A DNA stretch of 57,189 bases. Origin: a virus. Taxonomy: Duplodnaviria; Caudoviricetes. Location: positions 1-57,189 of IMG/VR virus record IMGVR_UViG_3300035703_000112. One strand, written 5' to 3'. The position numbers were made by a program, and so were the translations under genes. This document shows positions 8,628 through 57,189 of this stretch, in pieces; position 1 is the first letter of the stretch; each line of letters starts with the position of its first letter. The notes below the pieces were generated by a model. It saw only the letters and a program-made list of their open reading frames with translations. It had not been told where the DNA came from and made no database searches.

Positions 8628-8643
8628 TGTTTTTTGTTTTTGG

Positions 8644-39300: not shown

Positions 39301-40028
39301 CACAAACATATTCGTATACTGCTGCCATAGGTGATACTGCAATAGATATGCTAAATGGGTTGTTGGCGGATATAAATGGTGGAGTTGATTTCGTTGCTAC
39401 ATTTATTAGCGCTTCCCCATATTCAAACATAGAAGTAGTATCTGCATATCCATTAATAACGGTTGAGGGAATTGCTAGCATAACCTATAACACCTCTGGA
39501 GATATAAACCCGCATAACTTTAGTTTTAACGAAACAAGAAACGGGTTCTGCTCTTTCTATGACTTCAACCCAGAATGGGCCACAGGAGCTAATGACATGG
39601 TTTATACTTGGAAAAATGGGCTGCTCTGGAAACATGACAGCAATACCTATTGCAATTTCTACGGAGACCAATATTCAGCCTACCTGACCGCCGTTTTTAA
39701 CAATAATTTGTTGCTCAAAAAGTCTTGGCATAGCATAAACGAGATAGCAAGCGGTACATGGTCAGTTCCCCTAATGTATACCAATACCAAATCCTACGGA
39801 AGCCAAAGACAAGAATCTAGCCTTGTAGACGCAGAATTTACTATTTTGGAAGGGAATCCGTCATCGGCTATCAAAAGGGATGCCAACTCCCAAGGCGGAA
39901 AAATCAACGGGGATTTCATGAAAGGCAACTATTTAGTTGCTAAATTTGAGAAACAAAATGCTTCAAATTATATAACTTTGTCAGAGGTCTCTGTCCGTAA
40001 TACGGATAGCCCATTGACAGCAAAATAA
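36330..40028 (+). CDS. Tail stabilization/nozzle protein (P22 gp10-like)
   Basis: 1232 aa; GVLNTDD...IDAKNVR start, LLYWTDGYNRPR.IN, FCSFYDF.PE...TWKNG.LWKH...NFYG, MKG.Y. Confidence 0.8.
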   Translation: MIETKRFSGVLNTDDNPENVAGPQHIDAKNVRFYGGQNGLTAENIKGNYLINNANLPAGSNECIGSFFDSVKQRIIWFNWNSNGDNGIYSLDLATDVVSKIFLCGTDSATDILNFSPDYPVHSCNLVYRTVGDGDLLYWTDGYNRPRYINIDTVSSLAPFTEDMINAAKNAPLEPPATDYQSNSAVNVNNLRRKLFRACYRWVYKNGEKSTFSPISKMPLPTIGYDPNSSNNPTIDNNVKIDVVAGGDDYQAIEIAGQFNIGNTWSDFFLIDKLDRTEYNIAPNATYSYYFFNDGAYTQIDPQETDLYFSWLPNKSNTLELLNGNVIVYGGITDGYNTLQRSEVDVTVTVGTGNPNTPTISFAYAGANVFNVQIGAIIPVVPPFATFNIQFTYNSTLPGDASPKNINYTTTFGQSQDSVANAIALAVSGNNITGTNLGSGLIRINVTGFPPGSTITNVSVSVSLAGTAVADSSWKWSCPGRLGLVYFDERGKTNGVISYVSEGALDTTDFAFNTPDFVMNGNIPQVPIVSASINHTPPTWATSFQWVRANLIPTSFLYWVTCDYKTDADYLYFGIDNLTKQKADNTGFVPSYEFTQGDRIRIIAAYTAGNYVTYNTQLDMEILGDVELTMSPPNAATPGRFIKAYKPTTLPSAPYQGQMLVEIYTPRQVQSTGTQFFYEWGEKYDIYTLLGNRYHRGSVDDQTSTQPATFEWFDGDIYYYNRRFYEFSNSTSASITNYIMDANQNDYFPSAVNSNGRAWVIDENAREEYNSVLVRWGGKYQSGTNINNLSIFRPNDFDEVDRSKGDIQRFKSRDRILRVFQDRGTGQYGVYMRFISNNQGQQELVTTNEIITTNNIQYYQGVYGVSGYPTNLVSTQNADYFVDVVTGRAIRLGGNGLTDLGLAYKGQFYLSQLVLPYNKDIVRSGGFKSKVMGFFDYFDNQYNVLLQGSVSDFVINSQSSGQVGTYELSLAGNPKTGDVISLQLTDSLSTTQTYSYTAAIGDTAIDMLNGLLADINGGVDFVATFISASPYSNIEVVSAYPLITVEGIASITYNTSGDINPHNFSFNETRNGFCSFYDFNPEWATGANDMVYTWKNGLLWKHDSNTYCNFYGDQYSAYLTAVFNNNLLLKKSWHSINEIASGTWSVPLMYTNTKSYGSQRQESSLVDAEFTILEGNPSSAIKRDANSQGGKINGDFMKGNYLVAKFEKQNASNYITLSEVSVRNTDSPLTAK

Positions 40029-41972: not shown

Positions 41973-44900
41973 ATGGCTGAAAATACATATACAGGACAAA
42001 ACGAAGACCCGAAATATCGTAAAAAAGTATATGATATTTTATCTTCAAATTTTGAAGACTTCAAATTGTCTGAATCTGATTTTTACAAAAAGTTGGATTC
42101 AGATACTGGGTATGCTCCTAAAGTATATAAAGTATTAAAAGACAATTTTGCTGATTTTGAGAAGCCAGAAAAAGATTTTATGTCTTTAGTCGGCCCGTCT
42201 AAAAAAAAAGACCTTTTTGGAAAAATTACTACTTCCGTTGGCCAATTGCAAAAAGAAGCTGGTAAGGCTCTGGGCGGAGTAAAAAAGGGATTGGAGACAG
42301 TAGCGGCAGCTGCTGCTGAATATGAAAAGCCAGTTTTAAGAACGGCTGGTCCCGTGCCAACAGAGGTCGCTCCAGCCAAAGAATTAGAACCTATTGTTAA
42401 GCCTAGTGTTGGTATTGTTTCTGAAAGCACAAAAGTTCCCAAAATTGATATAAAAGCTGTCCAGCAGCAGAAAGCATACGAGAAAAAAATTGCTGATGAA
42501 ACGCCAAAAGAAACTCCATATTTTGGTGGCGTATTGGGTAGCACTCTTCAAGCAATAGACAGCGAGTATTCTCCAATAGGTCAATTGGGGGTTGGTGATT
42601 TTATTGATGATATGGGAAGAGCTATAGCTTCTGGAGTTAATCAGGGCGATATAACAACTCCTGCTAATGCTCTTCTATTGGCTGGTAAAAATGCTTCCCC
42701 AGAACAAATAAGAAAATATATTGATGCGGCAAAAGATTATGAGAAGATTGGTGCTTCAGAGGAGATGATGAAATTCTCAAAGACATACCAAGACGAGGGG
42801 AAAACAATATATGGTTTTTTAAAAGGGCTTGCACAAAATCCGGGAGTAGTTGGGGAACTTATAGTTTCATCAGTTACTGCATTGGCGAATCCATCCTCTC
42901 TTGCTGCGGCAGGGGCTGTTACTGGGGGTTTTGCTACTAGTGGGGCTGTCGGCGGTGGAGCTCCGGGGGCTGCGGCAGGGGCTATATCATCTATACCTTG
43001 GGCCATCGGTGCAGCAGGAACAGCTTTGGAAACAGGTCTTACATTTTCTGAATTATTAAACGATAAGCTAAAAGAAAAGAATTTAGAATTTACTGAAGAA
43101 AATGTTAAGTCTATATTGGAGGATGAGAAAACTCTTAAAGATATAAGAACAAAATCTTTAGCAAGAGGTGTTACCATAGGTGCAATTGATGCATTGACTG
43201 GTAGGTTGGCAGGTAAGGTAGGCGCAAAATTAGCTAGTAATACGGCAGCTTCTAGAGTAAAGGCTGGTCTTGCAGCTTCAGGTATAGAAATGGCTGGAGG
43301 TTCTATTGGGGAAGCATCTGGGCGTTTGGTTGCAGGTCAACCTATGGATGTTGCTGAAATTGGATTAGAGGGAATTGCTGAGGGTCCAATGGCTATTGCT
43401 GACGTTACATCGGAAGTTCTTCGTAGGCCAATATATAAAGTTAATGGCGAAAATAGAACAGAGGCTGATGTTCAAGAAATTATAAATACTTCTTCCCCTG
43501 AAGAACTATCTCAAATAAATATCGATATTAAAAATGATGTAAAAGGTTACAAGAATAAAATACAGGATATTGTTACTAATAATGAAATGCGAAATGAGAT
43601 TCGGCAAGCGAATCCAAAAGCAGATGATGCAACAATAGATACTCTTTTGAAATTAGAAAATGAATTAAAAACATTTGAAAATAATAAAACGCAATCAGGA
43701 AAAGAACGAGCTTCATCTATACGTTCACAGATAAAACAAATACAGGAAGAAGTTTCTCAAAAACAAGAAGTAGTTAAACCTGCCGGAGAAGTTCCCCAGC
43801 AAACATTACTTGAGCAAATATCTAAACGAATTGAGGAAATAGATGCTGAGGAAAGGGGTGCTGCCGGGGAAGTCGCACCAGAAGTTCCCGCAGCACCAAA
43901 AGAAATAACAGAGCCTGTGACTGTAGTGGAAACTCAAGATTTATACAAGGGTCTGCCAATATCAAATGTTAACGGAACTGGATTCCATAGAACAAATGTT
44001 GATGTTCAATCAATATTAAAAAATGGTTTTGTAGTACCAAATCAGGGTAGAGCTAAATTTGGTTATGGTGTGTATTTTACAAGAGAACCAAAAGAAACTT
44101 CATTTGGTGAAAATATGGTTAGCTCTAATTTTGAAGGCCTTAAAATGGTTGATTTAACAAATGATGATATTATTGGAGATAAATTTAATGCATTTAATAA
44201 TGCATTTACTGAAAATGGGACAATAGATTATAAAAAATTAACAGAAGAATTAAAAGCAAACGGAATTGATGGGGTAATTACAGATAATGAAATTGTTGTT
44301 TTTGACCCATCTAAAATAAAAAATATAAAAGAATATAAAGCCGGGGAAATCGCACCAGAAGTTCCCGCAGCACCAACAGCAGCGGCTCCAGTTCCCTCCA
44401 TCATAGAAGTAAAATCTCCAAAAGAAGTAAAACAAGGAGATACTATAGTATGGAGAGGGGAAGACTTCATTGTAGAAGAAGTAAATCCAAAAGGTGGATT
44501 TAATTTGCGTAATGCAGCAGACCGTACAAATACTGTAAAAGACGCAAGAATCACAGATGAAGAGTTCCAAGGTAAACGTGGGGAAGTAGCGGCTGCTCCT
44601 AAAGTTGAAAAGTTTGGAGTAGGATTTGCTCCTTTCCGTGAAAAGAATGTATTTACTGAAGAAGAAGATGTAGATATCAGAACTTCCCCAGACTATCAAC
44701 TTCATCAAGAGAACGTACAGAAAGTAGCCCAAGGACTAGGAATCAAAATAAACAACAAGCTAGATACTTGGGGAGGATATGTAGATATGGAGACGGGAAG
44801 ACCTGTACAAGAGGTTTCCAATATTATGGAAATTGAAGCTACTCCTGAGCAAGCTCGGGTAATGGCTGCTATCTTGGGTAAGGCTGCCCCCGAAATGCAG

Positions 44901-47900
44901 GACTCCGTATTGCTTGGTAACTACAATGAGAATGGCGCAGGATTCGAACATATTGTTAAAACTGGTTCTTTCGAAAATGCTAAAGAAGCAATTAAGCTTC
45001 TGAAAGACAATGAGTTGCAGTATTTTAGCGTTGACAAAAATAGCGGAGATGTCATTATTCTTGACCTTGAAGCAACAGATACACCAAAAATTATTAACTT
45101 AGTCAAACAATTAAATGAAAATGGAATCCCAGCAAAACACAAGTATGGCAAAGTCAACGCAGAATTCATCGGTAGCGGAGACTATGATGGAATTATTGAA
45201 GCAGAGCGGAGCAGAGTTGGAGCAGAAACAGGGTTCGATATTGATGCCTTTGTCCAAGAAGCAGCGGGAAAATATGACGCAATCAAAGCAGCAAGAACCC
45301 AACCAGTAGTTTCTGAAGTTCAAAAATCTATCGCCGACAAAATTCGTGGGCTAAAGATTGATTTGTCTAAGCTGGGAGAAGGTGGCGCTCAGTCCAACAT
45401 AGCAGGACTTCCCGTAGCACTATACAACACCGTAGTAGAAGCAGTAGCCCTTGCTGTAGAGGCGGGAGTGGCTGTAAATAAAGCAATTAATGATGCTGTA
45501 AAACAATATAAGCTAGATAAGGCTAAAGATTTTGATAAAGATGTACTTACAAGGGAAATATTGAAAGGCATTGAAATAACTGAACCTCAAGTAAATCCTG
45601 TATATTTTGAAAATCTGAAAAAATTTGCAAGTGAATCTTCATTTGACAATAAAATTCAATTTAAAAATTCAATACAGAGTTTATTTGCCAAATACCTTCC
45701 AGAACTAAAGGCTAAGTTTGGTAAAGATTTTGACCCGTCAAATTACGACGAAAGAGCAAGAAAGTATTTGGTTGATTTGGTTACTAGGGAATCTTTGAAT
45801 GCAATCAAAAAGCATCCGGAAGCAATTGGATGGTATGATGAGAAGACTCAGTCTGCATTAGATGTCATATCGGCTATTCATCCTGAAATCGCCACTGATG
45901 CTGAAGCTAGAGGTGCATTTATATTGCCTTTGGCTATTATGTCAAATGGAAACAAAGTAGACTTCAATTTTGAATTGGCTGAAAAGCAATATCAATTCTT
46001 TAAAGATAATGGAAGGTTTAATCCTGATGGGGAATTTGGCCTTCAGCAATCTGGCATTAAAAAATCTTTGATGCTTATCAATTCGTTACTTGATAACGGA
46101 TTGACAATGTCAGATATAAATAAATTCTTGACATCAAAGTATCGAGCTGGTGATTTGAAAATAAAGATTGATGGTAAGGTTAAGGATTTGGCTTCAGGTG
46201 AATTGGCTGATGAGCAAGTTTATGGAGCTGTTATTTTAGGTCCAAAGATTGGTAATGGGTTTTATATGAATTTGTGGGGTCAATTCGACCAATTGACCAT
46301 GGACAGATGGTTTATGCGTACTTGGGGTCGGATGACAGGCACATTGATTGAGAAAGATGCTGCTGGTATCGCTGAAGGGAAGAAGAGACTTTCTAAGGCT
46401 CTTGATGAGATTAAGAAAGATTCTGAGGCATTGGCTATATTAAAATCATTATTGCCTAAAATATCTAGCTTATCAATTCAGGATTTAGCAAAGTCTATTG
46501 AGAAAGTTTCGATGGATAAAAAGAAGAGAGCTGAACTTTCTTCAAATCCAAAAACTGACGAATTAAGGAAGGCTGCCAATTCCCTGTCTAAAAATCTTAG
46601 CGGCGAGAAGGAAGCTCCTTCTACTGGTAAAGAAAGAAGATTCATAAGGGAAGTGTTTACTGATGTAGTAAATGATTTAAAAAATAAATATGGTATAGAG
46701 ATATCTATGGCTGACCTTCAGGCAGCTCTTTGGTATCCTGAAAAAATATTATATGAATCTTTCAAAGGCGGCGAAACATTTGAGGCTGCTGCTGAAGGTT
46801 ATACATCTGATTCTGCACCTGATTATTTAAACGCGGCTAAAAAGCTAGCCACAAAACTTGGAGTAAATGAAGAACAAATCAATCAAGCCTTATCAAGAGG
46901 AAGAGAACGTGCTGAACGAATTGCAGGAGAAGGATATCCCGAAGGCGGGCGAGCAATTAGCGAATCTTATCAAGACATCCTTGGAAGAGTCAAAGAAGCA
47001 ATCGGGGAAAAGCCAGCCACAGAAAAAGTAAGAGCAGCGGCTAAAACAGTTCGTTCTCTTAAGATTAAGCAAGAAGGTCTTCAGGCAAATATTGCGGGAA
47101 TTCCCATCGCACTTTATAACGCAGCCTTGGAAACAATCGCTACAGCTTTGGAGGCTGGGGCTAGTTTAACAGATGCTATTCGGGAAGCTATAAGAAAGCA
47201 CAAACTTAATAAGCAAAAAGATTTTGATTCTGATACATTCGTAAAACAATTAGAAAGCGTTACTGGTCAAACAGTAGAAAAAATAGGAGGTAAATATGCC
47301 ATTCAAATCGAAGCAGCAGGTGAAGTTCCTGTACAGCCAAAAGCCGGAGTTAGCGAAGAAGTGGAGGGAGGAGTTCCCGGAGCAAAACCTAAAGCAGCTC
47401 CCGAAGAAGGTAAAGCTGAAGGTGAAGAAGAAAAAGTAAGGGTATCTGGTATTAAGAAGGGCTTGGTTTCCCAAGAAGTATTATCAAGAGTAAATCTTAA
47501 TACAGTTGGAGATAAGGAGCTTTTAGAGTCGGGAAAAGCTATCATTGAAAGCGGGGAAGTAAAGCCAAAGACTGTTGTCAATCGTGTAATTGATGGTGGT
47601 CAAGGTGTCCTTACCCCTGCTGAGGTAGTCGCGATGATTACTTATAAGGCTGATTTAGATACTAAACAAGAAGACCTTTCTAAAGAAATTGAAAGAAGAA
47701 CAAAGGCTGGGGAAGACTTGGGTGACCTTTTGGTTGAATACAAGGACTTGCAGGTCGAAATAGACAACTACGACATTGCAGCTGTTATCACAGCTCAGCA
47801 ACAGTCATTAGCATTCCGTCTTCGCAGATATCTTCTTGACAGAGAGTACAACATTACTGTACAAATTAATCGTTATAAGCAAACAAACGGCGGGACAATC

Positions 47901-50642
47901 CCTGAATCTGTACTCGCTAAGTTTAAGAAGCTTAATGAAACGATAAAGGATTTGCGTAAGAAGATTAAGGAGGCTGAATCGGCTAAGTATGAAGAAGATT
48001 CTAAGGCTGCTATGCAAAACATCATCGAAGATGTAGAGCGTGAAAATCAGGCTAACGGTCCTAAATTATATACAGAGCAAGAGCTCGAGAATAAAATTAG
48101 AGAAGGAGTTCAGAAGGAAATTGATGGTATCTACGAAAAGATGCCAGCTGAAAAGAAAAGCAAAGCTCAACGGGTTGTAGATGCTCTCGATAATATTCAA
48201 CGTAAACTTCGTAGTAAGACATATGATGCTAGCTTAGGAGTTCCCGTAGCTTTCATTGATGCGGGAATTACTGCAATTAAGAATGCTATCAAGCTTGGTA
48301 TAGAAGTAGAGAAGGCTATTGAGATTGGAATTAAAACAATCAAGGATAAGCTCAATGGTGCTAAGTGGGATAAGGAGGCTGACTTCCGTAAGGATATGAT
48401 GGAAGGTTTTAAAGAGGAAGGAGTTGATGTTAAAAAAACAAAAGAAGTAAAGGCTAAGATTAATGATGATGGTACAATAACAATTCCCAACAAAGACATC
48501 CGTGATTTTGTATCTCAGGGAATTGAAGACATTGATGATTTGGCTGATGCTATATTAAATAAGTATCAAGCAGAACTTCCCGGCGTATCATCAAGACAAG
48601 TAAGAGATGCCATCACTAAGTATGGTAATGAATTATACCAAACAAGAGATGATATTTCAATAAAGCTTGGAAGAGCAAAGAGAATTGGAAGACTGCTTTC
48701 AGAGCTTGAGGATTTAAGGACTATGGATAAGGGTGCTTTCCTTTTGAAATATCAAAGAGTTAAGCCAGCCCAAGACAAGATATCTGAAAGAGAGAAGAGT
48801 CTGAAATATCTTATTCGTGAATTGGGGCGGGAAATTATGGGCGATGAGCCACTTCCCGACAACTATAACGAGCAAAAAGCCCTTGATACCGCCAAGAATA
48901 GAGTCGGTCGTAGAATCGAAGAACTTAGAGACAAAATCAGAAGAGGAGATTTCTCTAAAAAGCAAAAACGCAAAGTTCAGGCTGACCAAGAACTTCTTGA
49001 CCTTGAATCTCAACTTGAAGACGTTAAGTCTAAATATGATTTGGAGCACGAAAAGAATGAGCAAAAGAATAAGAAGTGGTATCAGAAAGCTGGCGATTTC
49101 GTATTAGAATTATTTAGCGGAATACCAAGAACATTGGTTACTGGTTTTGACCTTGGTATCATATTTACTCAAGGTATGATGAGGGTGTTTACTAATCCCG
49201 TAATGTCTGCAAAAGCATTATGGGAGGCTGGTAAGCAGTTCTTTTCAGAATCTAGACAAATAAGAATGGAGCAAGAGCTTAAATTATCTGGTGCTTATGC
49301 CTTGATTAAGAATTCTGGTCTTGCAATATCGGAAGGGTCTGAAAAAGCATCTGCTCAAGAACAGATATTTATTGTCAATTATGTAAACTTAATTTGGGAT
49401 ACATTCTCAAGAGTAATAACATTAAATTATAAGCCGGGAACTGCTTTTGTAAAAGCATTAAATCCTTTCAAGGCTTCCCAAAGATTCTTTGATGGCTACT
49501 TAAATTATATAAGAATAAATTCATTTCTTAACCTGTCAAATGCTATTGATAAAAATGGATATACTCCGGAAACGTATCCTGATGTTTACAAAGCTGCTGC
49601 TGAATTTGTAAATACTACTACTGGTAAAGGAGCAAAGAACATTCCAAAATCTCTTGGTTTATTAATGTTCTCTGCATCTAAAGTTGCTTCTGAGCTTAAG
49701 TTGTATACTCCTTATGCATTATATTATTATGCTGCAATGCCTAAGGCTGTAAGGAATAGGGCTATGCTTAACTTTGGAAAGTTTGCCTTGAGTTTTGGGA
49801 CAACTATGTTCTTGATGAGAGCCGCACTTGGCCAAGGTCAAGGCGGCGAAGATGATGATGATTTTTGGGACCCTACAAGTAGCAATTTCCTTACTTTCAA
49901 ATTTGGAAATCAAAGGGTATCATTTGCTGCTGGAGCTCGCCCAACCATTGTGTTTATGGCTAGATTGTTTAGTGGGAAGTATATTGACCAATATGGTCAA
50001 GAATCAAAATTGGGCGAGAGAACTGGTAAGCAAATTAATACTGAGTTCGACCTTATTGTTAGGTTTTTTACTGCGAAGGCAGCTCCAGTTCCCGCAGTTG
50101 CTATAAAATACTTGGATAAGAAGGCTGGTGTAGAAGTAGAAGATGATGTATTCAAAAATCTTGTTCTACCCATGTGGCTTCAGGATTCACAAGAACTTTA
50201 CGCTCAAAATCCTAAAGAAATAGGCGCATTGTATACTTTCATTTCCCTAGTCGGTGCTAACGTAAGAACGGTTGAAGAGTATACACAAAAAGAGCATAAA
50301 ATGCCTCAGAAGATTTCTTATACAGATGATTATAGTAGAAAGAGGGAAGTCGTGTTGACAGATGAGCAAAAAGCTGACTTCCAAAAAATGTTTAACGAAA
50401 AGTTCAAAAAGAATATTGACGATATACATAATTCAGAAACGTATAAAAAGCTTGAAAGCAAAAACGACAAAATATTGTTCGATGTTGTTTATGGCAAAAA
50501 AGCAAAAGACGATGCTGAATCTGATGCAAAGAAGGAGCTGATTAGAAAATATCGTGGTCCATTCAGTGAATTCCCAATAATACGAGAAACCCCAGAAGAG
50601 AAAGAAATAAATAGAATTCTGAACAGAGGCGAAAAGCGGTAA
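41973..50642 (+). CDS. Large polyvalent injected protein with ADP-ribosyltransferase and DNA-glycosylase-like domains
   Basis: 2889 aa; Gly/Ala-rich hydrophobic segment; FHRT...GYGVYFT...DGVI..NEIVVFDP (H-Y-E ART); WYDE...GPKIGNGFYMNL...LTMDRWF...LQAALW. Confidence 0.75.
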   Translation: MAENTYTGQNEDPKYRKKVYDILSSNFEDFKLSESDFYKKLDSDTGYAPKVYKVLKDNFADFEKPEKDFMSLVGPSKKKDLFGKITTSVGQLQKEAGKALGGVKKGLETVAAAAAEYEKPVLRTAGPVPTEVAPAKELEPIVKPSVGIVSESTKVPKIDIKAVQQQKAYEKKIADETPKETPYFGGVLGSTLQAIDSEYSPIGQLGVGDFIDDMGRAIASGVNQGDITTPANALLLAGKNASPEQIRKYIDAAKDYEKIGASEEMMKFSKTYQDEGKTIYGFLKGLAQNPGVVGELIVSSVTALANPSSLAAAGAVTGGFATSGAVGGGAPGAAAGAISSIPWAIGAAGTALETGLTFSELLNDKLKEKNLEFTEENVKSILEDEKTLKDIRTKSLARGVTIGAIDALTGRLAGKVGAKLASNTAASRVKAGLAASGIEMAGGSIGEASGRLVAGQPMDVAEIGLEGIAEGPMAIADVTSEVLRRPIYKVNGENRTEADVQEIINTSSPEELSQINIDIKNDVKGYKNKIQDIVTNNEMRNEIRQANPKADDATIDTLLKLENELKTFENNKTQSGKERASSIRSQIKQIQEEVSQKQEVVKPAGEVPQQTLLEQISKRIEEIDAEERGAAGEVAPEVPAAPKEITEPVTVVETQDLYKGLPISNVNGTGFHRTNVDVQSILKNGFVVPNQGRAKFGYGVYFTREPKETSFGENMVSSNFEGLKMVDLTNDDIIGDKFNAFNNAFTENGTIDYKKLTEELKANGIDGVITDNEIVVFDPSKIKNIKEYKAGEIAPEVPAAPTAAAPVPSIIEVKSPKEVKQGDTIVWRGEDFIVEEVNPKGGFNLRNAADRTNTVKDARITDEEFQGKRGEVAAAPKVEKFGVGFAPFREKNVFTEEEDVDIRTSPDYQLHQENVQKVAQGLGIKINNKLDTWGGYVDMETGRPVQEVSNIMEIEATPEQARVMAAILGKAAPEMQDSVLLGNYNENGAGFEHIVKTGSFENAKEAIKLLKDNELQYFSVDKNSGDVIILDLEATDTPKIINLVKQLNENGIPAKHKYGKVNAEFIGSGDYDGIIEAERSRVGAETGFDIDAFVQEAAGKYDAIKAARTQPVVSEVQKSIADKIRGLKIDLSKLGEGGAQSNIAGLPVALYNTVVEAVALAVEAGVAVNKAINDAVKQYKLDKAKDFDKDVLTREILKGIEITEPQVNPVYFENLKKFASESSFDNKIQFKNSIQSLFAKYLPELKAKFGKDFDPSNYDERARKYLVDLVTRESLNAIKKHPEAIGWYDEKTQSALDVISAIHPEIATDAEARGAFILPLAIMSNGNKVDFNFELAEKQYQFFKDNGRFNPDGEFGLQQSGIKKSLMLINSLLDNGLTMSDINKFLTSKYRAGDLKIKIDGKVKDLASGELADEQVYGAVILGPKIGNGFYMNLWGQFDQLTMDRWFMRTWGRMTGTLIEKDAAGIAEGKKRLSKALDEIKKDSEALAILKSLLPKISSLSIQDLAKSIEKVSMDKKKRAELSSNPKTDELRKAANSLSKNLSGEKEAPSTGKERRFIREVFTDVVNDLKNKYGIEISMADLQAALWYPEKILYESFKGGETFEAAAEGYTSDSAPDYLNAAKKLATKLGVNEEQINQALSRGRERAERIAGEGYPEGGRAISESYQDILGRVKEAIGEKPATEKVRAAAKTVRSLKIKQEGLQANIAGIPIALYNAALETIATALEAGASLTDAIREAIRKHKLNKQKDFDSDTFVKQLESVTGQTVEKIGGKYAIQIEAAGEVPVQPKAGVSEEVEGGVPGAKPKAAPEEGKAEGEEEKVRVSGIKKGLVSQEVLSRVNLNTVGDKELLESGKAIIESGEVKPKTVVNRVIDGGQGVLTPAEVVAMITYKADLDTKQEDLSKEIERRTKAGEDLGDLLVEYKDLQVEIDNYDIAAVITAQQQSLAFRLRRYLLDREYNITVQINRYKQTNGGTIPESVLAKFKKLNETIKDLRKKIKEAESAKYEEDSKAAMQNIIEDVERENQANGPKLYTEQELENKIREGVQKEIDGIYEKMPAEKKSKAQRVVDALDNIQRKLRSKTYDASLGVPVAFIDAGITAIKNAIKLGIEVEKAIEIGIKTIKDKLNGAKWDKEADFRKDMMEGFKEEGVDVKKTKEVKAKINDDGTITIPNKDIRDFVSQGIEDIDDLADAILNKYQAELPGVSSRQVRDAITKYGNELYQTRDDISIKLGRAKRIGRLLSELEDLRTMDKGAFLLKYQRVKPAQDKISEREKSLKYLIRELGREIMGDEPLPDNYNEQKALDTAKNRVGRRIEELRDKIRRGDFSKKQKRKVQADQELLDLESQLEDVKSKYDLEHEKNEQKNKKWYQKAGDFVLELFSGIPRTLVTGFDLGIIFTQGMMRVFTNPVMSAKALWEAGKQFFSESRQIRMEQELKLSGAYALIKNSGLAISEGSEKASAQEQIFIVNYVNLIWDTFSRVITLNYKPGTAFVKALNPFKASQRFFDGYLNYIRINSFLNLSNAIDKNGYTPETYPDVYKAAAEFVNTTTGKGAKNIPKSLGLLMFSASKVASELKLYTPYALYYYAAMPKAVRNRAMLNFGKFALSFGTTMFLMRAALGQGQGGEDDDDFWDPTSSNFLTFKFGNQRVSFAAGARPTIVFMARLFSGKYIDQYGQESKLGERTGKQINTEFDLIVRFFTAKAAPVPAVAIKYLDKKAGVEVEDDVFKNLVLPMWLQDSQELYAQNPKEIGALYTFISLVGANVRTVEEYTQKEHKMPQKISYTDDYSRKREVVLTDEQKADFQKMFNEKFKKNIDDIHNSETYKKLESKNDKILFDVVYGKKAKDDAESDAKKELIRKYRGPFSEFPIIRETPEEKEINRILNRGEKR
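43863..44376 (+). repeat. 37-bp direct repeat pair flanking the ART domain
   Basis: GCCGGGGAA(G/A)TCGCACCAGAAGTTCCCGCAGCACCAA at 43863-43899 and 44340-44376, one mismatch. Confidence 0.9.
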
Positions 50643-50691: not shown

Positions 50692-51219
50692 ATGCCATTA
50701 GTTCCCAATTTTTCAACTAGTCAATCAGCGGGGAGCCCTTCTGTTATAACTATAACTGATACGTCCACGGGAAGTGATGTTGCTGTTACCCAGCGCCGTG
50801 TCTATCTTTTGGACTGGCAGGGAAATTATGTCGTTCCTTCAGGTACTACTACTAATTACATTCAATGGCCTATCGCACAAGCGACAATTAATATTGATTG
50901 CTTGACTCAAGATATGGCTTTGGAGGTGACCGTTGAATGGTTGAACGTAAGCAATGTGGCTTTGTATGATAAGACTGAATTGGTAGGATTTACTCTTTAC
51001 AATGAGACTTTCTACTATGCCCTGACGCAAGCACAAGCTGCTGCTTCAACTCCCACAACTATCCTACAAGATACGTCATTCCTGCAAAATAAGTCTAATC
51101 TTCGTTTGTTTATTGATAGCGGGAATCAAGCAGTCACGCTGGGATACGATATCGTATCTGCTCAGCAGTGCTATAACTTGGCTACCAACTTAAATACTAA
51201 CCAAGACCTCTATTACTAA
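50692..51219 (+). CDS. Virion protein (tail hub/fibre attachment candidate)
   Basis: Ig-like N-terminus (ITITDTSTGSD); TAATTTTG box at 50664-50671 upstream. Confidence 0.5.
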   Translation: MPLVPNFSTSQSAGSPSVITITDTSTGSDVAVTQRRVYLLDWQGNYVVPSGTTTNYIQWPIAQATINIDCLTQDMALEVTVEWLNVSNVALYDKTELVGFTLYNETFYYALTQAQAAASTPTTILQDTSFLQNKSNLRLFIDSGNQAVTLGYDIVSAQQCYNLATNLNTNQDLYY

Positions 51220-51740
51220 TGCCACTAACAGTAGCTCAAATAATTGACATTGGGAAAATATCTCAATACCTCGCTCAGAATGATGTTCTGAAGGGAAATC
51301 TTTTCTCTCCTCCTGTGGCTAGAACTACGCCGCAGATTCTTTATTTAGAGCGAAAGGCGGTAGAATGGATGTACAATATTGACCCAGCGAACACTTCCCT
51401 TGTACAAACCTCTCAATATCTATACAGCCTTTGCAGAGGATATAATTTACAAGCACAACAAATTTCGGGAACTGCTGGTGCAATATCTCCAGTCGTTCCT
51501 GCGCAAATTCCAAATCCATATGATTTTGAGGTAGATGCAACTTCCCTGATTACAAATGGGCAGTCTAGCGTCACATTAAACGCATTTATCGGATTCAACG
51601 TATTGTTTGTTCGGAATGGTATTCCTCAATCTACCATAAATACTGGGGGAAGCTATTACTCTTGGGTAAAAGCTACAGGAGTATTTACCATTTCCCCAGC
51701 GGCGGTAACAGGTGAACAATTCCAAATTTATCCAGTATAA
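51219..51740 (+). CDS. Virion protein (tail hub/fibre attachment candidate)
   Basis: C-terminal VRNGIPQ...YSW...TGVFTISPA...GE small beta-domain. Confidence 0.5.
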   Translation: MPLTVAQIIDIGKISQYLAQNDVLKGNLFSPPVARTTPQILYLERKAVEWMYNIDPANTSLVQTSQYLYSLCRGYNLQAQQISGTAGAISPVVPAQIPNPYDFEVDATSLITNGQSSVTLNAFIGFNVLFVRNGIPQSTINTGGSYYSWVKATGVFTISPAAVTGEQFQIYPV

Positions 51741-51742
51741 TT

Positions 51743-54700
51743 ATGAAGAAATTATTTTTACTTGTTCTGGGTTTAATTGTTTTCAAATTTGGGTACTCTC
51801 AGTACCCAATTCAGCAATTTATTGGGGCTGATAGCGCTATTGTTACGTCCAAAGGAGCTATGCAGAGTCGCTTTGTCAATGTTGTCTTTACTGACACTTC
51901 CCAAGCCAACACACAACGCATACGCCAATATCCCGGTGCTATGATTTATGCTGCTGGGAAGATGTGGGTCAGAAATACAACAGCTACTGGATGGACTGAA
52001 CTCGCTTATGGGCCAATATCCACAACAAATATTTACAATTCAAACGGAACATTGACGGGGAATCGTGACTTAGATGGAGGTGGTTATAATTTAACATTTA
52101 GTAGTATTGGAGGGGAATTCGGAGTTGGTGCTGATAGTATAAATTTTGTTCCAGCTTCGGGTAAATTTAGAATAAGTAGTTTAAATCAGGGAATAGGCTC
52201 TAAAGCTTTGAGATATGACCCAGTAACAAAACTTTTGTCTTATTCTGATACAACTAGTTCCCTAAATATCTACAATTCAGATGGCACACTAACAGGGAAT
52301 CGTGAACTGGATGGTAATAGCAATAATCTTACTTTCACAGCAGTAAAGAAATTTGAATTTTCTGGAGATAGCCTTTATTATATTCTTGACCCAGCGGGTA
52401 ACTTAAGGATAAAGCTCGGTAATCAGCAGCTTACAATGCAGGGGGACACGGCTTCCCTTTCTAGAAGAATATCTTACACGGGAAATCTTGGTTCTTCATT
52501 TACTAAACATAGCCTTGTAGACAAAAATTATGTGGACAGTATTGGTGTGTTAAGCCCTACAGGTTCGGGAACTACCAACTACGTTTCAAAGTGGACAGGT
52601 TCTACTGCATTGGGGAACTCACAGATATTTGATAATGGAACGAGTGTAGGAATTGGAACTGCGACTCCGAGTGCATCGTATTTGTTAGATGTTTCTGGAG
52701 CTTCAAGAATTAGTGGTAATACATATTTAGCTACTACTTCACAAACTTCACTAAACATTGGGAGTTCAAATTTTAGTGGAACACTTTGGACAGGCGGAAG
52801 TCATATATTTATTGGGTCATCTGCTAAAATATATGGTTCAACTGGGGCTGATGCTTCAATCGGTTCTAATTTATATTTTGATGGTTCTGCTGATAGAAGA
52901 ATCAGAGCCGGATTTGTTTCTGATATTTATTTTGATGCAAATGGTGATATAAATTTTAGAAGTGCTGGAAATGGTACTGCTAACTCAACATTAACTGCAA
53001 CAACAAATGCCGTAATCAAAAATAATGGCAATTTTTTAATTGGTAGCACAGTTGATGGCGGTTTCAAACTTTCAGTCACAGGCACTTTCCGTTCTACCTT
53101 AGATGCCAACATAAACGGATTGACAGTAGGTAAAGGAGGGGGAAGTGTTAGTGATAACACCGCTTTTGGTTATCAAGCAATCAACGGCACTTCAACTGGA
53201 ACATCAAACACAGCCATCGGATATATTGCGTTAAAAAGTTTAACATCAGGTTCATACAATAGTGCACTCGGTCTTAATGCTGGTAACTCACTAACCACTG
53301 GAAACCAAAACGTATTTTTGGGCTCTTATGCTGGTGGGAGTTTTACAACACAATCAAACAACGTAGCAATTGGATATTACTCGATGGTTAGCGCTACGTC
53401 AGCAGATTTCAATACTGCTATTGGTCATTCAGCATTTCAAAATACAACAAGCGCCGGAGGGGGTGTAGCGGTTGGATACCAAGCATTAAATGCAAACACG
53501 TCTGGAGATTACAATACTGGAATCGGTTACCAATCCTTACGAAGAAACACAACCGGAGCATACAATACAGCGATAGGGCATAGAACTTTGGATGCAGCGA
53601 TTACCGCAACTGGTAATACTTCTATCGGTTGGGCATCATTGATAAATGCAACTGGAGGATACAATACTGCAATAGGTAAAAATGCTGGTTATAGTACAAC
53701 TACTGGCACTTACAACATTTTCATAGGCGCAGACCCATCGTTGTCTTCTGGTAATGGTATCACAACCGGGAACTACAACACTATCATCGGTTCACAAATA
53801 ACAGGTCTCTCATCTTCCCTCTCCAATACAATCATATTAGCAGATGGACAAGGGAATCAGAGGTTGTATATTAACTCAAGTGGATATGCGGGTATTGGTA
53901 CTACTTCTCCGATTTCTCGATTATCTAATACTAACACTCAAATAACTGATGGTAATAACGGAACAAGTTTTAGCGGGATTCAATGGTCTTTAAGTGATGG
54001 AGGATATGCTTCTGCTATAAGCAATACAAATGCTTCTGCTACTGCTCACGGTCTTTTAGTTAAAGCATCTGGCGGTAGCCCATTAACAGTACAAGCGGGT
54101 AACACAACAAGATTTGTTGTTCTTCAAAATGGTAATACACTCATCGGCACAACCACAGATGCAGGCTACAAGTTAGATGTCAACGGTACTGCGAGAGTGA
54201 GTGCAGCAACAGGGAATGCTGATTTTAGTTTTTCAAGTGGCGGTAAGTTTAGAATAAGCAACAATAACTTTGCAAGCACACATTTTGAATATAATGCAAC
54301 AACAGCAACGACATCAATATATATATTCAGCACAAATAACGGAAACATAAGGAGTGATGGCTCTGGTATTTTTTACATAGGTAGTGGTCAAGATTTAAGA
54401 TTACAATCTGGTGGTTTTGCAAGTTCAAATGCTCAATCGTTTTTGATAAAAAGAAACGACCCCAATGCAACAAATGCTGTTGGGTTAGAAATAAATGATG
54501 GAGGTGCAACACCACACGCAAACTACAAACCATTTGTTGTAAAAATAAACAGTGTAGAACAAACACATTTTGACCAATATGGTGGGGGGCATTTTGGCAC
54601 ATCAACAAGTGTTTCATCTGCTATACTTTCAGCCACAAGCACAACAAAAGGTTTCCTACCTCCGAGGCAAACCCAAGCACAACGCACCGCCATAACTTCC

Positions 54701-54784
54701 CCAGCGGTCGGATTGATTGTATATCAAACGGATGCGACTGAAGGTTTGTATATTTACACCTCAACTGGATGGGTACAATTATGA
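51743..54784 (+). CDS. Tail-fibre/adhesin-like protein with an N-terminal Sec signal peptide
   Basis: MKKLFLLVLGLIVFKFGYS-Q; NIYNS.GTLTGNR twice; GIGT..P repeats; many NTAIGY.AL beta-roll repeats; C-terminal STTKGFLPPR...GLIVYQTD...W. Confidence 0.75.
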   Translation: MKKLFLLVLGLIVFKFGYSQYPIQQFIGADSAIVTSKGAMQSRFVNVVFTDTSQANTQRIRQYPGAMIYAAGKMWVRNTTATGWTELAYGPISTTNIYNSNGTLTGNRDLDGGGYNLTFSSIGGEFGVGADSINFVPASGKFRISSLNQGIGSKALRYDPVTKLLSYSDTTSSLNIYNSDGTLTGNRELDGNSNNLTFTAVKKFEFSGDSLYYILDPAGNLRIKLGNQQLTMQGDTASLSRRISYTGNLGSSFTKHSLVDKNYVDSIGVLSPTGSGTTNYVSKWTGSTALGNSQIFDNGTSVGIGTATPSASYLLDVSGASRISGNTYLATTSQTSLNIGSSNFSGTLWTGGSHIFIGSSAKIYGSTGADASIGSNLYFDGSADRRIRAGFVSDIYFDANGDINFRSAGNGTANSTLTATTNAVIKNNGNFLIGSTVDGGFKLSVTGTFRSTLDANINGLTVGKGGGSVSDNTAFGYQAINGTSTGTSNTAIGYIALKSLTSGSYNSALGLNAGNSLTTGNQNVFLGSYAGGSFTTQSNNVAIGYYSMVSATSADFNTAIGHSAFQNTTSAGGGVAVGYQALNANTSGDYNTGIGYQSLRRNTTGAYNTAIGHRTLDAAITATGNTSIGWASLINATGGYNTAIGKNAGYSTTTGTYNIFIGADPSLSSGNGITTGNYNTIIGSQITGLSSSLSNTIILADGQGNQRLYINSSGYAGIGTTSPISRLSNTNTQITDGNNGTSFSGIQWSLSDGGYASAISNTNASATAHGLLVKASGGSPLTVQAGNTTRFVVLQNGNTLIGTTTDAGYKLDVNGTARVSAATGNADFSFSSGGKFRISNNNFASTHFEYNATTATTSIYIFSTNNGNIRSDGSGIFYIGSGQDLRLQSGGFASSNAQSFLIKRNDPNATNAVGLEINDGGATPHANYKPFVVKINSVEQTHFDQYGGGHFGTSTSVSSAILSATSTTKGFLPPRQTQAQRTAITSPAVGLIVYQTDATEGLYIYTSTGWVQL

Positions 54785-55341
54785 TAGGAATATATAAAAT
54801 AACATTCCCTAACGGGCATTATTATTATGGCCAAGCCATCAATATAAGCAGACGATTTTCACAACACAAAAGAGAATTTAAAAAAGGAACACATACAAAT
54901 AAAAGGTTGCAAAATTGTTATCAAAAATATGGTGAGCCTATTTATGAAATCATTATTGAATGCGATAAATCCGAGTTAAACAAAATAGAATCAGAATATT
55001 TGTTTAAGCATATCGACGATGAATTGTGTTGCAATATGTGTAGAGAAGGAAGAAGCCCAAAAGGTATAAAAAGAAGTGATGAATTCAATAAAAAAATAAG
55101 TTTATACCAGCGAATGAATGGCAAGTCAAAGCCTGTTTATATGTTTAGCAGAGATAACATGGATATGCTTGGTAAATATGACACAATTCGTGATGCAGAA
55201 AAAGCTATCGGTGCCAATCCAAAAGATGTTCAAAAATCATGCAAATCAAATGGGAAATATAATGTTCGTGGTTACAAATTTATGTATGCTCAGCCTATTG
55301 ATAATTTATTAAATCATATTACAAACATTGTAAACTTTTAA
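54781..55341 (+). mobile_element. GIY-YIG homing endonuclease with a NUMOD1-like tail
   Basis: IGIYKIT...YYGQA..I.RR..QH; KPVYMF...YDTIRDA...GYKFMY; ATGA overlap with the fibre stop. Confidence 0.85.
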
Positions 55342-55351
55342 ATAAAACAAA

Positions 55352-55720
55352 ATGAAAAAAGCAATCATTACCCTTTTTCTTGCCTTTGGCTATGGTGCAA
55401 ATGCACAAACTATTGACAGCACTGTAACTAGTATTACAGCCGTTTACATTCAGCCCATCAAGGCTCAATTTACGGATTCCCTAATGTCAACAAATCTTGG
55501 TGTGCGGGTTATCGCAGATGACCTTAAAACAACCGCAACACTTTATTGGTGTTTGCTTATGTCAAATGGCGCTATATCTGTTCAGGGAAATTATACTATG
55601 ACGGGAGATGATTATACTGCTTGGTGTGCTGCTTCAAACCCAGTTCCTTGTAACATTTGGCCATTCACAGTAGTTGGTCGCGTATATAATCTTACATTTA
55701 TCAATCCATTAAATAAATAA
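55352..55720 (+). CDS. Fibre-associated protein with signal peptide
   Basis: MKKAIITLFLAFGYGANA-Q; DDLKTTATLYW.L...GNYTMTGDDYTAW. Confidence 0.65.
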   Translation: MKKAIITLFLAFGYGANAQTIDSTVTSITAVYIQPIKAQFTDSLMSTNLGVRVIADDLKTTATLYWCLLMSNGAISVQGNYTMTGDDYTAWCAASNPVPCNIWPFTVVGRVYNLTFINPLNK

Positions 55721-55739
55721 CCAAATAAAATTAAACAAA

Positions 55740-55991
55740 ATGAAAACTGCAATTAAAATTTCCATCTCGCTTTTTGTAATGATTGTTGTATTATCATCTT
55801 TTAGTAATTTTACGAAGGGAAATGACGCTACAACTTTGAAGTTTGAATTTACTACGGATGAGGTAAATCTCATATTTGAAGGACTAGGAGAACTTCCCGC
55901 AAAAAAATCAGAGGGTTTGAGAGTTAAAATTTATCAATCAGCACAGGAGCAACTGAAAGCGCAAGAGCAATCAGTTCCCAAGAAAAACTAA
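55740..55991 (+). CDS. Fibre-chaperone-like protein with a hydrophobic N-terminal signal
   Basis: MKTAIKISISLFVMIVVLSSF; FTTDEVNLIFEGLGELPAKKS..L..KI..AQEQ. Confidence 0.6.
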   Translation: MKTAIKISISLFVMIVVLSSFSNFTKGNDATTLKFEFTTDEVNLIFEGLGELPAKKSEGLRVKIYQSAQEQLKAQEQSVPKKN

Positions 55992-56000
55992 TAAATAAAA

Positions 56001-56183
56001 ATGGATACTCCAGCATCAGTAGGTAACGCACACGCAAGTTTGTTTATATCAATTTTTACTGCTGCGGTATCATTTGCTGATGCCGGGGAAGCCATGAAAA
56101 GTTTAGCCGGGCTTATTTCAATTGTGGCTGGAGTTATGGCAATTCGTTACTACTATCACGCAACTAAAAATGTAAAAAAATGA
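56001..56183 (+). CDS. Holin-like membrane protein
   Basis: 60 aa, two hydrophobic segments, basic C-terminus. Confidence 0.55.
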   Translation: MDTPASVGNAHASLFISIFTAAVSFADAGEAMKSLAGLISIVAGVMAIRYYYHATKNVKK

Positions 56184-56497
56184 ATTATACGAATTTAGTC
56201 CTGTTTGCTTTAGGATTGTTTGGAATTTTAATCCATAATCTAATTAAGGTTGATACAATCAATCGCCAATCTGAGGGTAACTTTAAATTCAAGAAATTTA
56301 TTTCTTTGGAATGGCCATCAATCGCCATCAGCTTTTCAGTAGTTGGTGTATGCTTGATTGCCAAACACGAAGTAAAACAACTTGAAGAAGTAGGGAACTG
56401 GCTCGGCTTGGCCTTCGTTACAATCGGGTACACGGCTCAGTCAATTGTATACAAATACTTAGGAACTGCTGAAAAGAAAATAAAAGGCGATGCATAA
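56180..56497 (+). CDS. Holin-like membrane protein
   Basis: 105 aa, three hydrophobic segments, basic tail. Confidence 0.55.
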   Translation: MNYTNLVLFALGLFGILIHNLIKVDTINRQSEGNFKFKKFISLEWPSIAISFSVVGVCLIAKHEVKQLEEVGNWLGLAFVTIGYTAQSIVYKYLGTAEKKIKGDA

Positions 56498-57023
56498 TCG
56501 TGGGCTACTATATCTTATCATTTCAGTAACGTGTTTTTTCATTGCAACCAGTTGCAATACGGAAAAACGTCTTCAGAAAGCAGAGGTATTGTTAGCTTCA
56601 AAGGGCCGTCTCTCAGAGATTTGTGCGGATAGATTTCCTCCTAAAGATTCAATAGTATATAGGGATAGTGTTAAGTGGGACACGTTATATGAGGGTATTT
56701 ATAGTATTGATACTATATATGATAATGACACCGTAAAGGTGTTTTTGACACTTCCCGCCAAAATCATAACAAAAGAAGTAGTAAAGTATCGTGATATATA
56801 TAGAGAGAACACAGCTAAAGTAAAAGAACTGGAAGGTAAATTGTCTGTTTGCAGTTTGCAATCTGCAAATTATTCAATAGAGTTAGTAAAATTAAGAGCT
56901 GAATCTAGTAAATGGGAAAAGCTGGCTAAACAAAGATGGTGGTTCTTATGGATTTTAATTTTATTGGCTGTCGGATTCACGATGAGAAAAAAAATATTTA
57001 ACCTATTAAAATTATTCATATGA
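56490..57023 (+). CDS. Putative unimolecular spanin
   Basis: Lipobox-like IATS-C, coiled coil, C-terminal transmembrane segment WWFLWILILLAVGF. Confidence 0.6.
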   Translation: MHNRGLLYLIISVTCFFIATSCNTEKRLQKAEVLLASKGRLSEICADRFPPKDSIVYRDSVKWDTLYEGIYSIDTIYDNDTVKVFLTLPAKIITKEVVKYRDIYRENTAKVKELEGKLSVCSLQSANYSIELVKLRAESSKWEKLAKQRWWFLWILILLAVGFTMRKKIFNLLKLFI

Positions 57024-57189
57024 AATACTTCCCTGCTGTAATCGTATTGTTAGTTGCTTTTTTATTTACATATTTTGGGTTCTTTGAGACTCAAGCTTGT
57101 GATTTAGATGCAGTTTATCTTAGCTGTAGACTTAATCCGTTTACTGCTTTCGATTTAATTGGATGCTTGTTGTTTTATGGTGGATGCGT
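57020..57189 (+). CDS. Partial membrane protein (runs off the window)
   Basis: MKYFPAVIVLLVAFLFTYFGF...; ATGA overlap with the upstream stop. Confidence 0.5.
   Translation, partial: MKYFPAVIVLLVAFLFTYFGFFETQACDLDAVYLSCRLNPFTAFDLIGCLLFYGGC

Follow-up and report, generated by a model that had tools for sequence, protein, structure and literature searches.

Export leaders on a tail-fibre-like phage protein and its neighbours: a candidate extracytoplasmic fibre module in Bacteroidota phages

Introduction

Why would a tailed phage furnish a tail fibre with a signal peptide? The question is raised by the right end of IMG/VR virus record IMGVR_UViG_3300035703_000112, a linear, uncultured podophage record of 57,189 bp that was analysed whole (hereafter the window), in which a tail-fibre-like protein of 1013 residues (encoded at 51743-54784) and two small proteins encoded behind it (55352-55720, 122 residues, and 55740-55991, 83 residues; all on the plus strand) begin with what look like leaders for the Sec export pathway. 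To our knowledge, tailed-phage virions are taken to be built entirely in the cytoplasm. A sequence-only reading of the window had nevertheless proposed that the three proteins are exported together, that the two small ones are chaperone-like partners of the fibre, and that the fibre may be built in the periplasm and dock onto virions at lysis. The window is 82% complete (CheckV); among its products are a portal, a large terminase and several matches to virion structural families. From sequence comparisons across related loci, export of the three proteins is well supported; whether the block is an extracytoplasmic tail-fibre module of a phage with a Bacteroidota host is, in our judgement, evenly balanced. 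A virion-type fibre that matures outside the cytoplasm would seem unusual for tailed phages.

Results

The fibre and its two neighbours carry predicted export leaders

The three open reading frames (ORFs) were found in the sequence as described: the fibre opens with MKKLFLLVLGLIVFKFGYS followed by Gln, 55352 with MKKAIITLFLAFGYGANA followed by Gln, and 55740 with MKTAIKISISLFVMIVVLSSF. By rule, each combines a basic n-region with an uncharged hydrophobic h-region of about 7-15 residues. The predicted fibre leader takes up residues 1-19 (51743-51799), with MKK, a hydrophobic core and G-Y-S ahead of Gln20, and that of 55352 residues 1-18, with A-N-A ahead of Gln19; both place small residues at -3 and -1. 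Gln at +1 after cleavage by signal peptidase I (SPase I) is the Q-rule of Bacteroidota, as set out in PMC5837995 and PMC10653852. The proposal that all three carry Sec signal peptides of this type stands for the fibre and 55352, which fit the rule; 55740 has an N-terminal leader or signal anchor, but neither a Gln at +1 nor a clear cleavage site.

The fibre ATG lies 2 nt past the stop codon of the upstream gene, no ATG, GTG or TTG occurs in frame between fibre codons 1 and 40, and residues 20-38 include seven positions that are invariant among 18 diverse relatives. Because there is no alternative in-frame start and residues 20-38 are conserved, the hydrophobic segment of the fibre should be translated. 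A true start downstream of the leader, which the sequence-only reading had named as fatal to its proposal, is ruled out for the fibre, as it would cut off conserved residues.

Such leaders are rare in the window. A rule-based scan of its 71 ORFs found no other in the structural block 19905-51740, where two ORFs were flagged: 25173, which has no basic n-region, and 34588, which is on the minus strand and overlaps a plus-strand ORF. The remaining leaders or transmembrane (TM) segments belong to the lysis-type ORFs 56001, 56180 and 56490 and to the early ORFs 404 and 8190 (minus strand). The same scan bore out the earlier statement that the products of 11455, 32166 and 33422 have no signal.

The leaders are also conserved. 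When fibre residues 1-260 served as the query, 128 of 8000 scored candidates reached E <= 0.001, and the best 120 of these were used. The mature N-domain of the fibre, which we call type 1 (residues 20-92, 51800-52018; compared by BLAST over residues 20-95), is found in 71 of the best 120 of the 128; 63 of the 71 have a full leader, eight are gene calls that start at a Met inside the leader, and none is without one. Among 48 unique fibre leaders, 46 have Lys or Arg in the n-region and one has an acidic residue, position -1 is Ser, Ala or Gly in 43, and position -3 is Gly, Ser, Ala or Val, again in 43. The leader sequences diverge widely while the n/h/c form, the small residues at -3 and -1 and the Gln at +1 persist, Gln20 being invariant in the 18 diverse relatives. 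The small proteins behave similarly: 55352 has 46 close relatives, with leader and Gln19 kept in 25 of 25 aligned sequences, and a hydrophobic N-terminus is found in 102/102 relatives of 55740 (49-100% identical). The 55740 family shares a conserved core of about 45 residues, about 25 of them invariant, and its copies in a second phage lineage (below) have short leaders followed by Gln.

Glycosylation sequons are enriched in leader-bearing proteins

Evidence of another kind comes from glycosylation motifs. PMC12871550 and PMC8550257 describe periplasmic O-glycosylation in Bacteroidota at D-(S/T)-(A/I/L/V/M/T), a motif enriched in non-cytoplasmic proteins. We counted this sequon, D[ST][AILVMT], in mature parts against composition-preserving shuffles, with the type-1 set made non-redundant by C-terminus, and express the outcome as observed over expected (O/E). 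Leader-bearing type-1 fibres hold 654 sequons where 249 are expected (n=56, O/E 2.63), and leader-bearing fibres of a third N-domain type 74 where 20.8 are expected (n=6, O/E 3.56), whereas leaderless fibres hold 83 where 114 are expected (n=46, O/E 0.73). The variable parts alone give O/E 2.07 for leader-bearing and 0.71 for leaderless fibres, and control motifs in the variable parts of the leader-bearing fibres give 1.02 (reversed motif), 0.49 (Glu for Asp) and 0.49 (D[ST] followed by other residues). Per protein, the median O/E is 1.93 with a leader and 0.69 without (Mann-Whitney p 2e-5).

The contrast extends beyond the fibres. Within the same genomes, leader-bearing ORFs reach O/E 3.44 (n=27, a set that includes at least two likely false leaders, the leader rules being crude) against 0.75 for other ORFs (n=149), and in the 55352 family leader-bearing members have O/E 4.08 (n=72) and leaderless members 0.83 (n=66). 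In phages whose fibres are leaderless, their own ORFs with a leader or anchor still show O/E 3.18 (n=49) against 0.97 for the rest (n=486), so that the contrast reflects compartment and not host phylum. The excess in leader-bearing members argues for exposure outside the cytoplasm. Two positions in the type-1 N-domain are frequent sites: site A has a strict D-S/T sequon in 32/51 unique N-termini and site B in 39/51, or in 48/51 if Ser is allowed third. Of the window's smaller exported candidates, 55352 has two sequons where 0.59 are expected, the spanin-like product of 56490 five where 0.36 are expected, and 55740 none; nineteen leaderless window proteins together hold 26 where 29.6 are expected. 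Across loci L018-L097, the sequon excess splits leader-bearing from other ORFs in every Bacteroidota-type set (O/E 3.2-3.4 vs 0.75-0.97).

Leader-bearing fibres recur in three phage lineages

The protein resembles tail fibres in several ways. It matches a virion structural protein family (phrog_6002, 3.8e-27) and a tail spike family (phrog_4636, 1.3e-18), and tblastn aligned annotated tail fibres over its residues ~440-830 (73 phage records, none covering 80% of the query). The homology lies in a central repeat region (residues ~409-830, 52967-54232) that is common to phage fibres and spikes and shared with PHROG 6002, 23837 and 4636 and with the fibres of Pelagibacter phages HTVC111P/112P and Roseobacter phages CRP-1/CRP-831. 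Like a tail-fibre gene, the gene ends the tail module and combines a conserved N-terminus with mosaic distal modules: relatives of the N-domain range from ~600 to 1730 residues and end in an S74 chaperone, K1-lyase_C, a GDSL esterase or a beta-helix, residues 259-1013 of the window fibre are 44% identical to the leaderless fibre of an unrelated locus (L003), and its C-terminal domain (54620-54781, with a GFLPPR...GW motif) is the same tail that leaderless and leader-bearing fibres carry at other loci. Judged by these comparisons, the family follows the mosaic pattern of tail fibres, with a lineage-specific anchor end and exchangeable distal parts. It differs from known tail fibres, which are leaderless and fold in the cytoplasm, in its conserved Sec/SPase I leader and in belonging to sequon-rich families; the fibres gp085 and gp087 of Cellulophaga phage phi38:1, for example, are leaderless.

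Type-1 fibres have a constant upstream neighbourhood. The gene at 51219-51740, which adjoins the fibre on its 5' side and encodes a 173-residue protein without a leader, and the gene before it at 50692-51219 (175 residues, no leader; both on the plus strand) have homologues directly upstream of the fibre in 9/9 loci (the window, L002, L007-L011, L013 and L156), a count of only those type-1 loci that have upstream DNA. The 50692 product has no family match in Pfam, PHROG or NCBIfam, and for the 51219 product an ESM Atlas search gave a lead to head-tail-connector-like clusters at score 0.83, below the 0.9 mark; the ESM Atlas searches gave leads only, with scores of 0.83-0.88. One type-1 locus is an 11-kb contig binned with a Sediminibacterium metagenome-assembled genome, which is a weak pointer to a Bacteroidota host. 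At another (L010), the fibre is present and both small genes are missing.

In type 2 (L014-L017) the tail module differs, with a tape measure gene followed by genes for 781, 235 and 85-88 residues and then the fibre. The mature N-domain is different, yet this fibre, too, begins with a leader and Gln at +1, and 13-22 bp behind its gene comes a 55352-like gene with a leader of its own. In three of these loci (L014, L016 and L017) the fibre, the 55352-like and the 55740-like genes are all leader-bearing and adjacent and are followed by holin-like genes; in L015 no 55740-like ORF was found, the next ORF being unrelated. One type-2 phage (G002) is a complete genome of 30,737 bp with terminal repeats (CheckV 100%), and its leader-bearing fibre is the sole ORF with tail-fibre homology. 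Type 3 (L053, L055, L058, L059, L094 and L095) has a third N-domain, once more behind a leader and Gln, and a 92% complete type-3 genome (G001) gives the same picture as the complete type-2 genome. Leader-bearing fibres are, by gene position and homology, recurrent in the receptor-binding-protein slot of three phage lineages, where the N-domain type follows the upstream tail genes and the distal parts are mosaic.

Beyond these uncultured relatives the region has few counterparts. No DNA match to it was found among the cultured phages of INPHARED, where tblastn with fibre residues 1-260, 55352, a leaderless family member and a type-3 N-terminus also gave no match and a type-2 N-terminus one weak match; neither the N-domain nor the small genes turned up in a cultured relative. 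Our Pfam scan of the fibre gave no family at E up to 0.1, although PF26696 stands in a precomputed listing for it, and NCBIfam gave no match for 10 proteins. Three other export-related identities were considered for the fibre and rejected: type IX secretion system (T9SS) cargo, since no T9SS sorting domain was found (Pfam and NCBIfam for the window fibre, Pfam for six type-1 and type-2 relatives); a surface lipoprotein, since it has no lipobox and no Cys at +1; and a trimeric autotransporter, since no YadA-type head repeats appear in Pfam at E up to 0.1. The repeats may bear some likeness to YadA-type repeats.

In the AlphaFold2 (AF2) model of the fibre monomer, leader residues 2-18 are helical and the last 40-odd residues have a predicted local distance difference test score (pLDDT) of 83-91. 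Residues 47-87 and 975-1013 (51881-52003 and 54665-54781) show, by eye, the same helix and three-strand pattern in this model and a like sequence motif, and in chromosomal fibre-like proteins of Flavobacteriaceae/Chryseobacterium (L098, L107 and L146) a similar module comes immediately behind the leader. At one type-1 locus (L011, 9631-12685) three further ORFs with leaders (432, 133 and 453 residues) stand behind the fibre; the last matches a Pel9A-like right-handed beta-helix (4.8e-20) and is predicted to be an exported enzyme of lyase type.

The small proteins accompany fibres, and 55352-like proteins match them in predicted compartment in most loci

The 55352 protein belongs to a far larger family than its leader-bearing form. 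A profile search of 1.84 billion representatives gave 386 members at E <= 0.001; among 150 of the 386 that were listed, 72 have a leader, 66 do not and 12 are unclassified, in two size classes, and leaderless relatives occur on more than 503 IMG/VR stretches. In the window and the collected loci we counted 89 ORFs of the family, 77 of them with a fibre-like ORF of at least 200 residues upstream, mostly 2-42 bp away. By this genomic context, 55352 represents a large family of small genes whose place is immediately behind phage tail-fibre genes, and the fibres that the family follows have many unrelated C-termini, including S74 chaperone-type tails.

The sequence-only reading had suggested asking whether leaders on these small proteins co-vary with leaders on the adjacent fibre, and in one direction they do: at 8/8 loci where the 55352-like gene has a leader, the fibre before it has one as well, while of the leaderless ones 63/69 follow a leaderless fibre and 6/69 a leader-bearing one. 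The predicted compartments of the two products accordingly match in 71/77 loci and mismatch in 6/77, counts that were hand-corrected at four loci (L012, an upstream TTG start; L085, a false leader; L094 and L095, leaders missed). The coupling has a Fisher p = 1.4e-7 when uncorrected, many of the loci being close kin; counted by clade, 3 vs 18, it has p = 0.015, with clades set by eye from N-terminus types and not from a tree. All 25 aligned members of the leader-bearing 55352 clade have Cys92 and Cys100, two residues that the leaderless homologue of L003 lacks. The view that the three proteins are exported together thus gains from the conserved block in the second lineage (L014, L016 and L017), from the coupling and from the sequons, and loses at the six mismatched loci.

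A chaperone role finds support in gene position only: the 77 family ORFs with an upstream gene adjoin a fibre-like gene, the predicted compartments differ in six of these pairs, and sequence and Foldseek searches matched no known chaperone family or fold. Neither 55352 nor 55740 has a match in Pfam, PHROG or NCBIfam. AF2 models 55352 with two helices and four strands at pLDDT 77.6; a Foldseek search of the PDB with this model had no match at E <= 0.001 (best E 0.05, TM-score 0.27), and its eight matches at E <= 0.001 in BFVD are all uncharacterised proteins of uncultured phages. A by-eye likeness of 55740 to leaderless ORFs of 48-51 residues (L039, L025) was discarded, a profile comparison giving that kinship a probability of 2.4%.

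Discussion

Tentatively, we propose that the receptor-binding fibre of several Bacteroidota phage lineages is exported by Sec, capped with pyroglutamate, O-glycosylated by the host and fitted to finished tails at lysis. Fibre monomers would cross the inner membrane via Sec, the leader would be cut off and Gln20 cyclised to pyroglutamate, and D-S/T sites, which in the window fibre lie mainly in the N-terminal quarter, would be O-glycosylated by the general system of the host. Folding would take place in the periplasm alongside 55352, with a likely Cys92-Cys100 disulfide, and 55740. We are less confident of the steps that follow: the fibre may be the receptor-binding fibre of the phage and may meet the cytoplasmically built tails only once holin action and the downstream lysis genes have joined the two compartments, docking via its lineage-specific N-domain, perhaps on the products of 50692 and 51219, as the sequence-only reading had imagined and for which the strict gene linkage (9/9 loci) is the sole argument. 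For a virion fibre that is added at lysis we put the odds at even or somewhat below. We infer the joining of tails at lysis from the gene position, the linkage of the N-domain and the lack of any other fibre in the small complete genomes. Shortly before failure of the outer membrane, canonical holins make large openings in the inner one, and T4 particles accept fibres in vitro, which makes docking at lysis physically conceivable.

Several points weigh against this proposal. Export separates the fibre from the assembling tails by a membrane, and no tailed phage is known to us whose virion fibre is exported by Sec; the literature found by full-text searches does not describe a tail fibre that is exported or O-glycosylated, and the available passages of PMC5723332, PMC3338817, PMC4615864, PMC12386605 and PMC12923769 contain nothing on one. 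The leaders were judged solely by n/h/c-region rules and evolutionary conservation. The sequon enrichment is a family-level result in which homologous sites are counted repeatedly, and the window fibre itself has six sequons where 3.9 are expected (p ~0.18), all in residues 30-265. Its AF2 monomer has a mean pLDDT of 44.8 and is confident only for the leader helix and the last ~40 residues. The window also holds leaderless fibre or spike candidates (31199, 32166 and 11455), and its virion may therefore not need the leader-bearing fibre; nor can a 55352-like protein be an obligatory partner in the compartment of the fibre, since six loci combine an exported fibre with a leaderless 55352-like protein. 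Finally, the exported neighbours of the fibre in L011 fit envelope-acting enzymes as well as virion parts, and leader-bearing proteins with like modules stand in chromosomal, non-prophage context in Flavobacteriaceae/Chryseobacterium.

These last observations suit a different account, in which the fibre is exported but is not a virion part and serves instead as an envelope-acting depolymerase or esterase, a receptor mask, a superinfection block, an adhesin or a decoy, to be soluble after lysis. It shares all the evidence for export and gains from the topological barrier to virion assembly, from the leaderless candidates elsewhere in the window, from the Pel9A-like lyase and two further leader-bearing proteins behind the L011 fibre, from the enzyme-type distal modules of the fibre relatives and from the chromosomal look-alikes outside prophages; Q-rule proteins of Porphyromonas gingivalis phages have moreover been proposed to be outer-membrane modifiers (passages of PMC10367356). 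We regard it as the main rival, though a less likely one. In three lineages the gene fills the receptor-binding-protein slot that closes the tail module, and one complete 30.7-kb genome has no other fibre homologue; virion-anchored fibres usually combine a conserved, lineage-specific N-domain with mosaic distal parts; the 55352 family otherwise accompanies ordinary leaderless tail fibres; and neither a T9SS C-terminal domain nor a lipobox was found that would deliver the protein to the surface. Much less probable still is that the leader remains in place as an uncleaved hydrophobic helix, acting as an assembly tether or an infection element, while the fibre folds in the cytoplasm. The topological problem would then vanish, the six loci that pair a leader-bearing fibre with a leaderless 55352-like protein would be accommodated, and the leader calls do rest on rules and conservation; but leaders that drift in sequence while keeping the n/h/c form, the -3/-1 residues and Gln at +1 have the pattern of a cleaved signal and not of a structural helix, a sequon excess only in leader-bearing forms is hard to explain for cytoplasmic proteins, and the cysteine pair occurs only in the leader-bearing 55352 clade.

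Whether the small proteins are chaperones of the fibre can be separated from its export. It is quite possible that they are not, 55352 being instead a general accessory or structural protein of fibre modules and 55740 a periplasmic member of the lysis-type cluster: no known chaperone family or fold was matched and the BFVD matches are uncharacterised, 55352-like genes follow fibres with varied C-termini (S74-type tails included), compartments mismatch at six loci, 55740-like genes always abut holin-like genes, and the L010 fibre does without either small gene. What ties them to the fibre is the tight linkage of 55352-like genes to the fibre stop codon (2-42 bp apart at the majority of the 77 loci), the 8/8 leader coupling and the recurrence of the three genes together in a second lineage with a different tail module. 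Fibre assembly chaperones such as T4 gp38 and gp57A, the Tfa proteins of Mu, P2 and lambda and the S74 intramolecular chaperone offer a limited parallel: 55352 is likewise a small gene directly after the fibre, but shows no likeness to them in sequence or fold, and its family even follows S74-tailed fibres.

Other phage proteins are known to leave the cytoplasm. Spanins, signal-anchor-release (SAR) endolysins, T5 Llp and Cor-type lipoproteins are Sec-dependent proteins of lysis or exclusion that also use host export, and a spanin-like lipoprotein is encoded 500 nt downstream in the window; such proteins are small and are not homologues of virion fibres, however, and none of the three window proteins has a lipobox. 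Mycobacteriophage virions are glycosylated by phage-encoded glycosyltransferases in the cytoplasm; there too the sugars sit on exposed virion proteins, whereas here we propose glycosylation by the host in the periplasm after export. Another parallel is offered by the P. gingivalis phages, in which passages of PMC10367356 describe five genes for proteins with Q-rule signal peptides and unknown function: there too, leaders encoded by a phage of a Bacteroidota host leave Gln at +1 for SPase I to expose, but in those passages the proteins are not described as fibre-like, a point on which the gene tables of that paper may bear. The general O-glycosylation of Bacteroidota uses the same three-residue sequon, here enriched only in leader-bearing proteins; it is described for cellular proteins (the word 'phage' does not occur in the available text of PMC12871550), and the glycosylation of phage proteins is our inference.

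If the proposal is correct, this would be the first virion part of a tailed phage to go through an assembly step outside the cytoplasm, and the first case of a phage using Bacteroidota O-glycosylation. The new assembly step would tie the infectivity of progeny to the timing of lysis, and the surface chemistry of the virion (pyroglutamate, host-type O-glycans) would depend on host export and glycosylation genes, which matters for host range, for resistance gained by losing glycosylation and for how stable phages of gut, oral and aquatic Bacteroidota are. Even without a virion role, the proteins would form a large and unrecognised class of exported fibre-like phage proteins, at least 71 in one N-domain family in addition to two further N-domain types. 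The sequon excess is a simple sequence-based way to tell which Bacteroidota phage proteins leave the cytoplasm and could serve as a marker of localisation and host phylum for uncultured phages.

Neighbouring genes and other features of the window

The right end of the window runs from a gene for a 2889-residue protein through the plus-strand genes 50692, 51219, the fibre at 51743, a GIY-YIG gene at 54769, 55352, 55740 and small membrane proteins to 56490, and a relative of 70.6 kb (L002) is syntenic with it. As the sequence-only reading had it, the locus sits directly before lysis genes. A 60-residue membrane protein with hydrophobic segments (56001-56183), conserved in L002 and L013, is holin-like by size and position, and a scan of the sequence assigns a 105-residue multi-TM protein (56180-56497) to the same lysis-type cluster; 56490-57023 encodes a 177-residue protein with a lipobox (...ATSC) and a C-terminal TM segment, like a unimolecular spanin, with homologues in the same place in L008, L010, L011, L013, L015 and L016. 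The start of a further membrane protein (57020-57187) is cut off by the edge of the record; its full homologue in L002 has 97 residues and is followed there by a 120-residue TM protein and then a GH19 endolysin. The five sequons of the spanin-like protein fall within 30 residues (positions 53-82), and periplasmic lysis proteins of these phages may, by their sequence, be glycosylated too.

The GIY-YIG homing endonuclease gene (54769-55341; Pfam GIY-YIG 2.5e-5, phrog_314 6.2e-20) overlaps the 3' end of the fibre gene by 16 nt. Homing endonuclease genes occupy different module junctions in different relatives: in the window and in L002 (4896-5468) a GIY-YIG gene separates the fibre from 55352, a junction at which L013-L017 have none, L002 also has an HNH-like ORF between its homologues of 50692 and 51219, an insert separates the 51219 homologue from the fibre in L013 (~2516-3272), and a GIY-YIG-like ORF of 390 residues follows the 55352 homologue in L008 (12752-13924).

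Elsewhere in the window, the product of 36330-40028 (1232 residues) matches the crassvirus muzzle protein (PF25731, 1.1e-17) and has a C-terminal domain matching PF25729 (1e-4). The tail is, by these matches, crAss-like, although the portal is closest to Cellulophaga/Flavobacterium podophages, its nearest cultured relatives being Cellulophaga phages phi38:1, phi40:1 and Calle and the Flavobacterium 'elemo' podophages at 22-24% identity. The 2889-residue protein (41973-50642) has a single family match, to phrog_32588 of unknown function; one stretch of it may, by eye, resemble a motif of ADP-ribosyltransferase type. The products of 31199-32164 (321 residues) and 32166-33404 (412 residues), which have neither a leader nor a family match, are nearly identical over their first 17 residues, as in paired spikes or fibres on one anchor. 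Three consecutive genes of glycosyltransferase type (14792-17735; DUF5672 plus GT9, GT17 and GT2-like) lie just downstream of leaderless ORFs of 618 and 242 residues. In the 156-residue product of 8190-8660 (minus strand) a classic leader comes after an internal Met, and there are two sequons where 0.29 are expected; the product is predicted to be a further exported protein.

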